DNA of 64,000 bases, from positions 351,319 to 415,318 of the forward strand of contig JAHFSX010000002.1 in NCBI GenBank assembly GCA_023269675.1, given 5' to 3'. Within the stretch, counting starts at the first letter, position 1. Each line of letters begins with the position of its first letter. Position numbers and translations under genes: made by a program. The notes beneath the pieces are model-generated. The model did not search any database and was not told the DNA's origin. It was given only the letters and a program-made list of their open reading frames with translations. The DNA comes from Verrucomicrobiota bacterium. GTDB taxonomy: Bacteria; Verrucomicrobiota; Kiritimatiellia; RFP12; UBA1067. Positions 14,973-34,500 of this stretch are shown here, piece by piece.

Positions 14973-15239
14973 TCCTTTTCAAGTGACGCACGCGTGCATT
15001 CAGGCGGGGACACCACCCCGAGGCCTCCGCGTGTCGTGTCCCGCCAATAACAGGACAGGCTCGTTATTGCTTGCGGGGGATCATCCCGTTCGTAGTACCG
15101 CCTTCAGGCGGAATCTCGGGTCAATCCGTCCTTTCTTTCCGCCTAAAGGCGGCGCGACAAACTTGAGCTCGGGCATAGCCATTTACGGGACACGACACTC
15201 GCGTAACCAGAACCAGACAGATCCTTCACCACCCAGGCT

Positions 15240-15312
15240 CCAAGGGCACGGAGCTCACCAAGGCTCGTCTTTGTGAACTTGGTGCGCTTTGTGCCTTGGC
15301 GGTTAAGATCAA
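15240..15312. repeat. Single copy of the CACCAAG/CTTGGTG palindromic repeat family (see 31871..32151)
   Basis: caccaaggctcgtctttgtgaacttggtgcgctttgtgccttggcggttaag resembles the units at 31415-31496, 27030-27090 and the tandem array at 31871-32151. Confidence 0.35.
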
Positions 15313-30864: not shown

Positions 30865-30906
30865 AAGATCCTCACTTCATGACGATCCACAGCTTCTTGT
30901 CGGTAC

Positions 30907-30996
30907 CTTCAAATGGATTACGATTAAGAGCACGATCACGATTATGAGGAACAGGGGGACCTCTCGTAATCTTCATCCCAATCGTGATCTTAATCC
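30907..30996. repeat. MITE-like palindromic element, copy 1 (direct repeat of 33195..33288)
   Basis: cttcaaatggattacgattaagagcacgatcacgattatgaggaacagggggacctctcgtaatcttcatcccaatcgtgatcttaatcc. Internal inverted symmetry (cgattacgag / ctcgtaatcg; gattaag / cttaatc). ~80% identical to the 33195-33288 copy. Confidence 0.45.
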
Positions 30997-31316
30997 TTCA
31001 AGAAAGCACCCCCCCTCCGATTGTTCCCGCTCCGCTGGCGGGGGGCTTGTTCCTGAATGACGTGTGGTAATTAGCATATTTTGCCAATCCTGACAAGCCA
31101 GCGCCGACGACATAATGATCCCCTGTCTTCGCAATGTATTAGGATGTAATGACTTAAAGCTAATTTCCGACTTGCCAGTCCTGTACTGAAACGACTGCTC
31201 TTCTCAAACAGGAGCGGCCTTCTGAAGAGCTGTCCCTTGGTTTTGTCCTGAGTAACAGAAGTCGAAGCGTGTCGTCAGAAGCCGGCATGAGAACAACACC
31301 CGCACGCCCAGGGCTG

Positions 31317-31360
31317 GGCGTGCCACATCGGGGTGTGCCATGCGCATCCCTGCGCATGGG
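31317..31360. repeat. REP-like palindromic element (copy of 20702..20747)
   Basis: gggcgtgccacatcggggtgtgccatgcgcatccctgcgcatggg. Confidence 0.35.
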
Positions 31361-31414
31361 CCGCAGGCTGCCGCTGTCCGGGAAACGGACGAGTAAACCA
31401 ACGGGAACAGCTTT

Positions 31415-31496
31415 CACCGCCAAGTCACCAAGGGCACCAAGCCGCACCAAGGATCAACTTCGTGTTTCTTTGTGTCCTTTGTGCCTTAGTGGTAAA
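31415..31496 (+). promoter_or_regulatory. CACCAAG/CTTGGTG repeat unit directly upstream of the DKAAAD-repeat gene; contains a possible promoter (TTGTGT-N16-GTAAAT with TGn)
   Basis: caccaagggcaccaagccgcaccaaggatcaacttcgtgtttctttgtgtcctttgtgccttagtggtaaat, then 24 nt, an SD aaggagag and the ATG at 31531. Confidence 0.3.
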
Positions 31497-31530
31497 TGAA
31501 ATTGTGGAGTCAAATCAAACAAGGAGAGTT

Positions 31531-31869
31531 ATGAGCAAACCCGATGAAGTTGCGAAGGAAGTGATTGACCAGGCCGCCGCGGACAAGGCCGCTGCCGACC
31601 AAGCGGCAACCGACAAGGCTGCGGCGGATCAAGCCGCCGCCGACAAAACTGCCGCCGACAAATCGGCCGCTGACAAAGCCGCTGCGGATCAGGCCGCCAC
31701 CGACAAGGCTGCTGCTGACAAGGCTGCCGCCGACAAGGTCGTCGCCGACCTCACCGCCGAGAGGGACACATTCAAGACCGAGCGGGAACAACCGCGTGTT
31801 CGGCGCGGGCGACATGATCGACTACGGCGGCGTGGCCTTCGTGCGCCAGGACGACCCCTAATTTCCTAA
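31531..31869 (+). CDS. Small acidic alanine-rich repeat protein, ~14 x D-K/Q-A-A-A-D hexapeptide repeats. Apparent +1 frame change near 31790 into a well-coded C-terminus ending at 31861.
   Basis: SD aaggagag 2-4 nt before ATG 31531. Frame 0 reads MSKPDEVAKEVIDQAAADKAAADQAATDKAAADQAAADKTAADKSAADKAAADQAATDKAAADKAAADKVVADLTAERDTFKTE with GC3-rich codons. After ~31790 frame 0 switches to rare codons (cgt gtt cga cat gat cta), while frame +1 reads NNRVFGAGDMIDYGGVAFVRQDDP* with uniformly GC3 codons. Confidence 0.4.
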   Translation: MSKPDEVAKEVIDQAAADKAAADQAATDKAAADQAAADKTAADKSAADKAAADQAATDKAAADKAAADKVVADLTAERDTFKTEREQPRVRRGRHDRLRRRGLRAPGRPLIS

Positions 31870-31870
31870 C

Positions 31871-32151
31871 ATCCACCACCAAGGCACAAAGGACACAAAG
31901 CCTCACCAAGAATCAACTTCGTGTTTCTTAGTGCTCTTGGTGTCTTGGTGGTAAATCTCTCAACTCAGCATCCACCACAAAGCCAAAAAGGGCACCAAGC
32001 TTCACCAAGGATCAAACTTCGTGTTCTTAGTGTCTTCGTAACTTCGTGTTAAATCTCTCAACTCGACTTCCACCACCAAGGCACAAAGGACACCAAGTCT
32101 CACCAAGAATCAAACTTCGTGTTTCTTAGTGCTCTTGGTGTCTTGGTGGTA
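31871..32151. repeat. Three tandem ~95 bp repeat units built from CACCAAG direct repeats and CTTGGTG inverted repeats
   Basis: Unit A 31871-31960, unit B 31961-32050 (degenerate), unit C 32051-32151. Consensus tccaccaccaaggcacaaaggacac(c/a)aag.ctcaccaagaatcaa(a)cttcgtgtttcttagtgctcttggtgtcttggtggtaa. Related single copies at 31415-31496, 15240-15312 and 27030-27090. Confidence 0.6.
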
Positions 32152-32222
32152 AGAAATTCAAGGAGCGCATCATGCAGAAAATCACCGTCACGACCGTTTC
32201 GGCCGGCGTCAGCCCGCTTGGC

Positions 32223-33152
32223 TTACTTCGCCGGACCCAGCACGCCCGCGGCGTCGTCGTTCAGCACGCCGGTGTCCAGCCCGTCAAGCACGAGCACGTT
32301 GTTCACCGTGCCGCCGAACTCCTCGTTCCACGACCAGACGATGTTGTGCTCCTTGTCCAGTTCCACAACTTTGAGCCCCGGCTTGAAATCCTTCGCGCTG
32401 TGTCCGGTCCAGTTCGCCATCACGATGTGGCCGTTCTTGAGGATCTGGAAGCCGGCGTAGAAGAAGTTGTTCAGCCCCTCGGGCTGCTTGAGGACCGTAT
32501 CTTTCAGCAGCTTGCCCTCGGCGTCGAAGGTGTAGAGCCCTTTGGAGTATCCGCCCGAGACCAAGAGCGTGCCGTCCGGCGCGTAGAGCGCCATGTAGGA
32601 GTTGCGCGGGCGCGGCAGGGTGAACTTGCGCACGAGCCGCTTCTCGGCCTCCAGCCCCTTCTCCAGCGATACCTCGTAGGCGCCGTCCTCGGCCGCCAGC
32701 AGCAGCGTGCCCTTGGGCGTGAAGCGCATCAGCCGCACGTACTTGGCCGCTTTCGGCATCTCGTAGGTCGCCGTCAGGTTCTTCTGCGCGTCATACTCGT
32801 AGACCGTGCCGCCCTGCGTCCCCAGGAAGGTCCGGCCGTCCGCCCGCCGCCGCACGGAACGCACGTCCTTGAGCGCGTCCGACTGGAACGAGTCGACCTT
32901 CTGCCGCGAGGCCAGATCGTACACGTCGTACCCCTTGCTGCGGTTGCAGAGCAAGCGGTTGCCGCCGACCAGCTGCAGGTCGAACGTGATCTCCGGCAAT
33001 TTCAGCGTCCAGTTCTTGGCCGCGTCCGCCTGGTCCACATAGTGCACCGAGCTGTGCATGAAATCGCTCACCAGCAACCGGTGCTTGATCTCCCCTCCGC
33101 GCACCAGCACCGCCGCCATCATCCCCGCCGCCATCATCATCGCTTTCTTCAT
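32223..33152 (-). CDS. Secreted hypothetical protein, predicted beta-propeller fold (309 aa)
   Basis: Signal peptide MKKAMMMAAGMMAAVLVRG. Repeated Gly/Tyr/Asp beta-strand blades (GGTVYEYDAQ, DGTLLVSGGYSKGLYTFDAEGK, NGHIVMANWTG). Balanced composition, in contrast to the R/H-rich antisense ORF 32172..33194. Confidence 0.5.
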   Translation of the reverse strand: MKKAMMMAAGMMAAVLVRGGEIKHRLLVSDFMHSSVHYVDQADAAKNWTLKLPEITFDLQLVGGNRLLCNRSKGYDVYDLASRQKVDSFQSDALKDVRSVRRRADGRTFLGTQGGTVYEYDAQKNLTATYEMPKAAKYVRLMRFTPKGTLLLAAEDGAYEVSLEKGLEAEKRLVRKFTLPRPRNSYMALYAPDGTLLVSGGYSKGLYTFDAEGKLLKDTVLKQPEGLNNFFYAGFQILKNGHIVMANWTGHSAKDFKPGLKVVELDKEHNIVWSWNEEFGGTVNNVLVLDGLDTGVLNDDAAGVLGPAK

Positions 33153-33194
33153 ACGCTCCCCCTTATGCGTTATTCGCTTCAGCGTTACCTATAA

Positions 33195-33288
33195 CTTCAA
33201 CCGGATTACGATTAAGCGCACGATTAGGATTACGAGGAACCGTGGCCTCTCGTAATCGTCATCCTAATCATAATCCTAATCGTAATCG
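33195..33288. repeat. MITE-like palindromic element, copy 2 (direct repeat of 30907..30996)
   Basis: cttcaaccggattacgattaagcgcacgattaggattacgaggaaccgtggcctctcgtaatcgtcatcctaatcataatcctaatcgtaatcg, immediately 5' of the beta-propeller gene. Confidence 0.45.
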
Positions 33289-33312
33289 TTCAACGTTTTC
33301 CCATTCCTCCCC

Positions 33313-34500
33313 CTACCACGCCCGGCAGAGCAGACCCTTCAGATACAGCCCCTCGGGGAAGCAGAGCCCCTCGGGATGATCCTCCGCCTGCTGCAGCCGC
33401 GTGACCACCTGCATGTCGCGTCCGGCGTCCACCGCCGCGTCCGCCACCACCTTGTGGAACAGCTCGGGCGTCATCAGCCCCGAACACGAGAAGGTCGCCA
33501 GCACGCCGCCCGGACGGAGCAGCTTGATGCCCAGCAGGTTGATGTCCTTGTATCCGCGCGCGGCCTTCATGAGGCTGTTCTTGGACTCCGCGAACTTGGG
33601 CGGGTCCAGCACCACCAGGTCGAACGAGCGGCCCTCGTCGCGGAACTTGCGCAGCACCTCGAAAACATTGCCCTGAATGAAGCGCGACTCCTCCACGTGG
33701 CAGGTGTTCAGCCCCGTGTTGGTCTTGGCCAGCTCCAAAGAGGGCGCGGAAAGATCCACGTGCGTCACCGAGGCCGCGCCCGCGGCCACGGCCGCGATGC
33801 CGAACCCGCCCGTGTAGGAGAAGGCGTTGAGCACGTCGCAGCCGTTCGAGTAGCGCTTGACCAGCTGGCGGTTGTCGCGCTGGTCGAGATAGAAGCCGGT
33901 CTTGTGGCCCTCGCGCACGTCCACCAGGTAGCGACAGCCGTTCTCGACGATCTCGATGCGCTCCGGCGGCGGCTCGCCCGCCAGCACGCCGGTCACGGGC
34001 AGCAGACCCTCGTGCTCGCGCACATCCACGTCCGAGCGCTCGTACACGCCGCGGCACGGCGAGTAGCGCTGCAGGGCCGCCACGATCTCCGCCTTCCACC
34101 GCTCCGTGCCCGCCGCGGTGAACTGGCACACGATCCACTCGCCGTACCGGTCGGCGATCAGCCCCGGCAGCCCGTCCGCCTCGGCGTTCACCAGACGGAA
34201 CGCGTTGGTCGCGTCCTCAGCCAGCAGCACCGCCCGCGCCCCCACCGCCCGCGCCACGCGCCCGTCCACGAACGCCGCGTCGACAGCCGCCCCGGCTCCG
34301 AAGGCCCACATGCGCACGCGGATCTGCGAGGTCGGCGAATAGGCGCCCACGCCCAGCACCGCGCCGTCGGACGCCAGGACGCGCACGGGGTCGCCCGGCG
34401 CCGGCGCGCCGTCCACCCGCGCGACGGCCCCCGAAAAGATCCACGGGTGGCGCCGCAACACGGAATAATCACGATTGGGATGCAGAGTAAGATCAGTCAT
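33313..34500 (-). CDS. rlmI: 23S rRNA (cytosine-C5) methyltransferase RlmI-like (PUA + class I SAM-MTase)
   Basis: Start at the ATG at 34498-34500 (MTDLTLHPNRDYSVLRRHPWIFSGAV). PUA-like N-terminus, then FSYTGGFGIAAVAAGAASVTHVDLSAPSLELAKTN and LVVLDPPKF (the MTase DPP motif). ORF-track 33313..34668 carries an Arg-rich N-terminal extension. Confidence 0.85.
   Translation of the reverse strand: MTDLTLHPNRDYSVLRRHPWIFSGAVARVDGAPAPGDPVRVLASDGAVLGVGAYSPTSQIRVRMWAFGAGAAVDAAFVDGRVARAVGARAVLLAEDATNAFRLVNAEADGLPGLIADRYGEWIVCQFTAAGTERWKAEIVAALQRYSPCRGVYERSDVDVREHEGLLPVTGVLAGEPPPERIEIVENGCRYLVDVREGHKTGFYLDQRDNRQLVKRYSNGCDVLNAFSYTGGFGIAAVAAGAASVTHVDLSAPSLELAKTNTGLNTCHVEESRFIQGNVFEVLRKFRDEGRSFDLVVLDPPKFAESKNSLMKAARGYKDINLLGIKLLRPGGVLATFSCSGLMTPELFHKVVADAAVDAGRDMQVVTRLQQAEDHPEGLCFPEGLYLKGLLCRAW

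Follow-up and report, generated by a model that had tools for sequence, protein, structure and literature searches.

The decayed lambdoid prophages of Escherichia coli K-12 are cryptic prophage remnants with deletion-fused pseudogenes. Positions 31355–32211 of the window (the whole 64-kb stretch of DNA that was analyzed) are very probably something of this kind, a collinear relic that extensive deletion has left of a temperate phage element and that includes a deletion fusion of a scaffold and a capsid gene. As in the K-12 remnants, the late-gene fragments are collinear, the deletions lie at short direct repeats or microhomologies, essential genes are missing, and host genes are found directly on both sides. 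The relic differs from these remnants by its extreme reduction (~0.9 kb, from a parent prophage of at least 15 kb) and by its parent family, for which no relative was found when IMG/VR was scanned with the capsid protein and Pfam contains no family for the capsid or scaffold proteins.

A second term of comparison is the HK97-fold podovirus head module, as found in Escherichia phage SU10 (Kuravirus), whose head is prolate. The portal and adaptor proteins of the parent element pass the thresholds of SU10 families in Pfam, and its capsid protein matches phrog_1357. In contrast with SU10, to which the matches are distant, the element has an integrase and sits integrated in bacterial contigs, and many of its copies carry 0–6 kb of cargo between the scaffold and capsid genes. 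The scaffold-like protein, hereafter A, is small, acidic, and predicted to be almost wholly helical, as are P22 gp8, phi29 gp7, and the C-terminal part of P2 gpO; it also shares with phage scaffolds a flexible linker, a short C-terminal helix, and a gene immediately upstream of the capsid gene. It differs from them in lacking an HMM match above threshold and in having two tracts of variable length, D[KQ]AAA (2 to ~16 copies) and TERDxLK (1–6 copies). We know of no such tracts in characterized scaffolds. Lastly, the open reading frame (ORF) at 31531 has in common with prfB and other +1 frameshift genes of the RF2 type two successive coding-like frames at a +1 offset; unlike these, it shows neither a shift site nor a conserved arrangement, and its two frames come from two different genes.

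The open reading frame at 31531 and its two frames

A first-pass annotation of the window had described a repeat protein that starts at an ATG preceded by a Shine-Dalgarno sequence and changes frame near its end. The start is borne out by direct reading, 4 nt separating AAGGAG from the ATG at 31531 (Table 1). Frame 0 then encodes MSKPDEVAKEVIDQ, the repeats, DLTAERDTFKTERE, and the Arg-rich EQPRVRRGRHDRLRRRGLRAPGRPLIS, and stays open until TAA, whereas frame +1 encodes NNRVFGAGDMIDYGGVAFVRQDDP up to a stop at 31859–31861. Both ends agree with those annotated earlier (31869 and 31861), and so does the switch of coding frame around 31790: over 31791–31860, frame +1 has a third-position GC of 1.00 and frame 0 one of 0.38, and the junction itself lies at ~31787. 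The stretch 31788–31869 in frame 0 is out-of-frame sequence, not a coding tail.

Table 1. Features of the relic in the window, and proteins of the intact element with Pfam matches
Feature	Positions	Strand	Evidence and remarks
Remnant of g93 (93-aa gene before A): start-proximal piece 31355–31376 joined to the last codons and TAA (31394–31396)	31355–31396	+	blastn, 95% over 22 nt (L012, 542–563)
Long imperfect hairpin of the 'CACCAAGG' sub-repeat type, g93–scaffold intergenic	31413–31498	+	Inverted repeat I1/I2; −36.4 kcal/mol, z = −4.7
Shine-Dalgarno sequence AAGGAG	31521–31526	+	Read directly; conserved in L012 and L011 (aaaggagagttATG / gaggagagttATG)
5′ portion of A (85 codons + 2 nt): MSKPDEVAKEVIDQ, repeats, DLTAERDTFKTER	31531–31787	+	blastn, 82–86% to L012 and L011; alignment with ~20 intact homologs
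Twelve 15-nt units, D[KQ]AAA-type pentapeptides	31567–31746	+	TRF: period 15, 12.2 copies, 72% matches; unit table
Junction 1, 2-nt microhomology GA	31786–31787	+	blastn end points; side-by-side comparison with A and capsid references
Internal MCP fragment, codons 233–256 (NNRVFGAGDMIDYGGVAFVRQDDP), then TAA	31787–31861	+	tblastn, 100% aa identity, E = 3e-10
Frame-0 read-through of the capsid fragment, Arg-rich, with TAA at 31867–31869	31788–31869	+	Third-position GC 0.38 versus 1.00
2.9 tandem copies of a 98-nt unit	31868–32152	+	TRF: period 98, score 409; inverted repeats I3–I6
Stub of g191: RBS and first 13 codons (MQKITVTTVSA...)	32160–32211	+	blastn, 77–88% to g191 starts of L007, L015, L027, L028, L005, L019
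Portal (intact element)			PF23899 SU10_portal, 8e-10, above threshold
Adaptor (intact element)			PF24175 SU10_adaptor, 2e-10, above threshold
Integrase (intact element)			PF00589, 3e-20, above threshold

A homolog search with the joined protein (repeats plus tail), which the first-pass annotation had proposed as a check, returned two unrelated sets. One shares the N-terminus and the repeats and continues as ...TERDALKTEVDRLEKLTGKAAKPPAAGGGGDKKLTADEWLAEELKKGK; the other has the tail motif embedded in a longer chain (...RQDDPYRCN...; ...NNRVFGAGDMIDYGGVAFVRQDDPYRCN...), and never is the tail the C-terminus of a repeat protein. Among the ~20 intact homologs of A from related loci, frame 0 continues as DLT[AT]ERDTxKTE(RDxLKTE)n VDRLEKLTGKAAKPPAAGGGGDKKLTADEWLAEELKKGK, and a tail placed after the repeats (NNRVFGAGDMIDYGG... 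as C-terminus) is absent from all of them. Everything after the first TER heptad is lost from the A of the window, that is, more heptads, VDRLEKLTGK, a Gly/Pro linker, and a C-terminal helix. When intact A was compared with the window by tblastn, the only match was at 31750–31788, and the C-terminus was found in no frame.

Two explanations that keep a single gene must be weighed here. According to the first, one base was gained or lost by a sequencing or assembly error around 31780–31800, and the true product is a 110-aa protein made of the repeats and the FGAGDMIDYGGVAFVRQDDP tail. A shift of exactly +1 with a coding look on both sides, in a sequence that comes from a metagenome assembly, would suit such an error. 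Yet intact A proteins all continue differently and none has the tail as its C-terminus; the tail corresponds to residues 233–256 of a 359-aa capsid protein; no single base restores either gene, the missing C-terminus of A being encoded nowhere in the window; and an identical junction-spanning sequence occurs on two contigs. An indel is thus extremely unlikely. According to the second, programmed +1 ribosomal frameshifting links the repeat domain with the tail, as the openness of frame +1 (31565–31861) and the third-position GC of the tail might invite one to think. The upstream part of this openness is explained by the GC-rich repeat, which reads PPTK... in that frame. Direct reading of the shift region (31775–31800, AAG ACC GAG CGG GAA CAA CCG CGT) reveals no in-frame stop and no recognized slippery motif around ACC GAG CGG GAA CAA CCG. 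Moreover, the arrangement is not conserved, as fusions elsewhere have other joining points (that of L002 is in frame, at residue 212 of the MCP), and 24 residues from the interior of a protein with a probable HK97 fold do not amount to a domain. Programmed frameshifting has therefore next to no probability. Both explanations are rejected because the missing 3′ part of A is absent from the window in any frame. Hence, of the three options given by the first-pass annotation (frameshifted pseudogene, sequencing indel, or programmed frameshifting), pseudogene came closest, with the difference that two genes have been joined and not one gene frameshifted. That the tail belongs to the interior of another protein is also an outcome of the kind that the first-pass annotation had named as refuting its reading. 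Since the ORF is a deletion junction of two phage genes, it should neither be annotated as a frameshifted gene nor be "corrected" into a joined protein.

The parent genes and the intact element

The repeats had been described as ~14 hexapeptides encoded by 18-nt units. The actual period is 15 nt, coding for the pentapeptide D-[KQ]-A-A-A in 12 units, and the hexapeptide results from counting the Asp twice. TRF scores for the repeat (140–206) are far above chance. All 12 units are distinct in nucleotides and encode only six different peptides. The divergence of the units had been put forward as an argument against slippage: the units of the window are indeed diverged (72% matches), but the argument fails for the family, in which copy number is highly dynamic. 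For example, the otherwise near-identical loci L022–L025 have 6, 11, 12, and 15 units that are 88–95% identical, and in L023 the identity is 88% at a period of 15 nt and 95% at a period of 60 nt. The second repeat of A, a 21-nt unit encoding the TERDxLK heptad, also varies in number. The tract behaves like a length-variable helical spacer within the scaffold protein. A relation between repeat number and the size of the scaffold–capsid cargo was considered and is not supported, as cargo-free lineages also have 6–15 repeats. The suggested resemblance to ice-binding or spacer proteins finds no support either: instead of an 11-residue period with regular Thr on one helix face, the hallmark of the former, the period is of five residues with Asp and Lys/Gln in each unit, and the gene position and predicted structure indicate a phage scaffolding-type protein.

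Several observations bear on this assignment. The stop codon of A precedes the MCP start by 3–6 nt in the divergent lineages L022–L025 and L027, and the gap is of 110–184 nt in L021, L029, L042, and L047; in the lineage nearest to the window, cargo lies between A and the capsid gene. The AlphaFold2 model of one A protein (P0009, pLDDT 84.6) has a helix at residues 4–75, a disordered Gly/Pro linker at 76–89, and a second helix at 90–101. Profile matches to scaffolds remain below threshold, both for the C-terminal part of Phage_GPO (PF05929, E = 0.0038, 17.3 bits, cut-off 33.6) and for the 'head scaffolding protein' families phrog_194 and phrog_73 (E = 0.09–0.13). In position and predicted shape, A fits a phage scaffolding protein. 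By analogy with P22-type scaffolds, the C-terminal helix lost from the window would be the coat-binding end.

The parent of the tail is a 359-aa protein whose gene is intact in 16 loci (L004, L005, and 14 more). The capsid piece of the window is 97.3% identical in nucleotides to L005 and L004 over 75 nt (31786–31860). In a pattern scan of GTDB genomes, the tail motif was confined to metagenome-assembled genomes labeled as Kiritimatiellia, Lentisphaerae, or Verrucomicrobia. Eleven of 20 family members match the 'major head protein' family phrog_1357 (best E = 4.6e-9), with residues 161–292 aligning collinearly with 161–294 of 356. A Foldseek search of the PDB with the model of the protein gave HK97-fold shell proteins for all of the top 50 hits, namely phage or GTA capsids (GP4, N4, SU10 7z48, HK97, lambda) and two encapsulins, with probabilities of 0.75–1.0, TM scores of ~0.3, and distant sequence identities of ~10–15%. 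Because the AlphaFold model is poor (pLDDT 46.5), the assignment to the HK97 fold depends above all on the profile matches and on the neighboring genes. Searches of Pfam with the protein gave no match, and searches of the PDB by sequence, with the protein and its profile, gave nothing meaningful. The 359-aa parent is a major capsid protein (MCP), probably of the HK97 type. The short tail-bearing proteins P0008, P0020, and P0036, for which Pfam and PHROGs gave no informative match, are deletion variants of the capsid gene. An encapsulin or truncated capsid-like protein (the ~200-aa ORF of L001) was also considered; the existence of intact genes for the 359-aa protein and the phage setting speak against it, and it is rejected.

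The gene order of the intact element was obtained from a tblastn panel and ORF calls, with 52 more loci taken from a metagenome scan. It consists of a 477-aa terminase-like gene, a 561-aa portal, g93, A, the 0–6 kb of cargo, the 359-aa MCP, g191, the adaptor, g84, g343, g78, g253, and the integrase. The succession g93, A, MCP, g191 is found in L014–L019 and L021–L029. The 477-aa gene has no Pfam match and is called terminase-like from its position and from a possible P-loop-like motif, NEAGKTS, identified by eye. The slot between A and the capsid gene is a cargo hot spot, and metal- and oxidative-stress genes are found there. The element is multi-copy, many contigs break inside it, and it is frequent among Kiritimatiellia-type bacteria of anaerobic digesters and comparable environments. 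A search of the literature on Kiritimatiellia prophages and on SU10 scaffolds found nothing specific, and the parent temperate phage lineage, with its SU10-like portal and adaptor, seems to be undescribed.

Junction, anatomy of the relic, and decay of related copies

At the junction between A and the capsid gene, ...ACC GAG CGG [GA]A CAA CCG C..., homology to A runs through GAGCGGGA and ends at 31787, and homology to the capsid gene starts at 31786 with GAACAACCGC, so that the overlap is limited to GA. The +1 offset arises because GA occupies codon positions 1–2 in A but positions 3–1 in the capsid gene. Codon 257 of intact MCP genes is TAC (Tyr257), whereas the window has TAA, the capsid piece ending with CCCTA. 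This TAA, considered as a possible native stop of the capsid gene, is followed by hairpins of the type usually lying between g93 and A, and not by a conserved spacer between the capsid gene and g191.

The other fragments also match parts of the intact element. Comparison with L012 and L011 indicates that ~230 nt were lost from the middle of g93, and homology to the 3′ end of g93 and its downstream region (L016, L015, L031, and L045) begins at 31378–31382. A hairpin of the same type as the one between g93 and A in the window occupies the equivalent intergenic position in L012, L031, L045, L015, and L052. Downstream of the capsid piece, each 98-nt unit of the array contains a 'CACCAAGG'-type hairpin (31875–31952, ~31973–32050, and 32072–32150); copies 1 and 3 fold at −35 to −43 kcal/mol with z of −5 to −6, and copy 2 is degenerate. 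As the sequence is a metagenome assembly (ENA ERZ27297709), the copy number of this array could be mis-assembled. A scan of the whole window with Rfam at gathering thresholds found nothing. In intact loci, g191 begins with MNKINVTTVSAV or MQKINVTTVSAV (pattern M[NQ]KINVTTVSAV), and in the window the homology to it gives out 11 nt short of the 3′ end of a minus-strand host gene (32223–33152). Hence, the fragments g93′, A′, MCP′, and g191′ keep the order and orientation of the intact element and are flanked on both sides by host genes on one contig, in the interval from dprA to a 309-aa gene. When the panel of portal C-terminus, g93, A, MCP, g191, adaptor, g84, g343, and g253 was run by tblastn against the 64-kb window, the 24-codon MCP piece was the only match.

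Very probably, a deletion by illegitimate recombination at GA removed the rest of A, any cargo, and the first 232 capsid codons. The scaffold frame therefore runs +1 out of phase into capsid codons 233–256. A second break ended the capsid piece at the TAA and the hairpin-repeat array, and further deletions cut g93, upstream, and g191, downstream, down to stubs. The sequence itself shows the homologies, the gene order, the positions of the junctions, and the frame arithmetic behind this account.

The same juxtapositions could in principle come from a chimeric assembler mis-join of reads from different prophage copies, the real genome having intact genes. An element present in many copies, in which many contigs break, is prone to this, and one Logan contig from this organism stops within the hairpin array. 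However, the junctions share only 2 nt, far less than any assembler k-mer, and each of four separate collinear deletions would need to be an artifact. Furthermore, the exact antisense ORF across the junction is present on two contigs (152 kb and >200 kb), and the relic has host genes on either side within one contig. A mis-join is thus very unlikely. An independent Logan contig matches positions 32123–33897 without a mismatch.

Deletion fusion of the two phage genes, which we favor, also has parallels in other copies. Many non-intact capsid loci inside long bacterial contigs have internal deletions, and independent deletion variants with different junctions are found in L001, L006, L008, L026, L030, L031, L037, L038, L053, and L063. 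In L053 and L063, the deletion took place between 12-nt direct repeats (AAGTTCGGCGAC, codons 53–56 and 216–219), and in L001 it is at CCGCGTG. Another fusion of the A repeats with the MCP, found in L002, L003, and L010, is in frame, its repeat units leading into capsid residue 212. The copy in the window is an extreme case of the ordinary deletional decay that is the rule for this element. What looked like a programmed frameshift or a novel repeat protein is in this way a clean negative, an ordinary decayed prophage relic.

Possible roles of the truncated scaffold

The best reading is that the ORF at 31531 has no function. This is inferred from its origin in the interior of a late operon, the lack of a near promoter match (a search upstream of 31531 gave a single promoter-like match, far off at 31090–31119), the loss of the linker and of the C-terminal helix, and the 27 out-of-frame residues at its end. 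With the ribosome-binding site intact, some residual expression of the truncated scaffold may nonetheless occur.

A further proposal is that the truncated scaffold continues to be produced and that the relic owes its retention to this product, which could for instance be a dominant-negative decoy that hampers related infecting phages in building their capsids. Loci with only A or with duplicated A exist elsewhere (L011, L031, L041, and L061) and could, with the truncated ORF, represent expressed acidic helical decoys against superinfecting phages, the hairpins serving to stabilize or insulate the transcript. The intact RBS and start codon, the retention of 85 codons of a protein confidently predicted to be helical, and the stable hairpins on both sides of the ORF are compatible with this idea. 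On the other side are the distance of the only promoter match and the missing linker and C-terminal helix. The Arg-rich, out-of-frame tail argues against selection on the product, and the break points of the other deletion variants are unrelated, as neutral decay predicts. A retained decoy is accordingly very improbable, and absence of function is the reading kept here. A weaker variant concerns the intact protein, whose two length-variable repeat tracts might tune capsid size in this SU10-like lineage.

The analysis has also some value beyond the relic itself. It brings to light a temperate phage lineage that is widespread among Kiritimatiellia-type bacteria and apparently undescribed, and in the scaffold gene of this lineage one finds hypervariable pentapeptide and heptad repeats.

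Variation around the scaffold and capsid genes

Among the related loci on other contigs (L001-L063), internal deletions of the capsid gene recur across different contigs. Two of them lie between 12-nt direct repeats, AAGTTCGGCGAC, at codons 53-56 and 216-219; among the other junctions, one is at CCGCGTG and the rest are at 2-nt microhomologies. The unit formed by the portal 3' end, the phage gene g93, and the scaffold gene is duplicated, in tandem or partially, in several contigs, and some of these duplications include truncated copies of the scaffold gene. The repeat tract of the scaffold gene also varies. L022-L025 are near-identical, and their sole difference is the number of DKAAA units (6, 11, 12, and 15). 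Because these units are 88-95% identical, the sequences indicate that the tract is still expanding and contracting, in steps of 15 and 60 nt.

The intergenic site between the scaffold and capsid genes is a hot spot for cargo, with a size ranging from 3 nt to approximately 6 kb. Most of the cargo of L019 is on the opposite strand, and it includes genes for a chromate transporter, a DUF1259 protein, an AhpC/TSA redoxin, and a DUF2231 protein, along with two genes that by eye resemble those of a nickel/cobalt efflux protein and its repressor.

Positions of the features in the window and in the related loci
Feature	Location	Strand	Remark
Capsid gene internal deletions	L053 ~855; L063 ~200; L001 ~5800; L008 ~60; L037 ~90; L038 ~10160		
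Duplications of portal 3' end-g93-scaffold gene	L011 7226-8264; L031 1547-4862; L041 1570-4384; L061 3229-6964		
Scaffold-capsid cargo	L019 3923-10000; L004, L012, L014-L016, L032, L034, L039, L043, L045		
Scaffold genes of L022-L025	just upstream of capsid gene		
Capsid-g191 stem-loops	L005 4684-4810; L014, L015, L016, L019, L021, L029, L036		
First hairpin family	window 15224-15307, 31413-31498, 31875-31952, ~31973-32050, 32072-32150; L031 2178-2249; L045 ~992-1062; L015 235-309		
Second hairpin family	window 30904-30995, 33204-33287; L031 1735-1812		
dprA	window, start 30864	-	beside second family
309-aa gene	window 32223-33152, start 33152	-	beside second family
101-aa ORF across repeat	window 31510-31815	-	public annotation
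340-aa ORF	window 32172-33194	+	

Intergenic hairpins

In all intact elements, a stem-loop separates the capsid gene from the phage gene g191, and the hairpin sequences are wholly unlike each other in phages whose flanking genes are approximately 95% identical. The types are GGAGGACGG, GTAAGAGGTAA, GGGAGTTACAGG, and CAACGCCCAACG; in other loci, their place is taken by a short hairpin that is GC-rich and terminator-like.

Two further families are built of sub-repeats. Hairpins of the first are imperfect and roughly 80 nt long, with arms made up of the 8-nt sub-repeats CACCAAGG / CCTTGGTG and single mismatches separating stems of 3-4 bp. Both strands fold (z of -4.7 to -6.3 for the + strand; copy 2 is degenerate), and block-shuffled controls gave no hairpins of this type. 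Because one copy sits in a host intergenic region far from the relic, the decayed prophage remnant of the window, the family has the appearance of a REP-like element, one that is found at intergenic sites of prophages too.

The second family has the sub-repeats GGATTACGATTAAG... / ...CTTAATCGTAATCC, and its two window copies, each preceding the start of a minus-strand gene by approximately 40 nt, share 83% identity. In a prophage copy, a hairpin of this family lies between the portal gene and g93. If the copy at 30904 is part of the relic, the left edge of the latter would be near 30900, not 31355.

Shadow ORFs

In the source contig (ENA ERZ27297709, 152,746 nt), the ORF that is publicly annotated across the repeat is the antisense one and not the sense ORF, the broken scaffold gene running into the capsid fragment. 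This 101-aa antisense ORF shadows the GC-rich repeat. The 340-aa ORF shadows the real 309-aa gene; what remains of the start of g191 supplies its ATG and first 13 codons.
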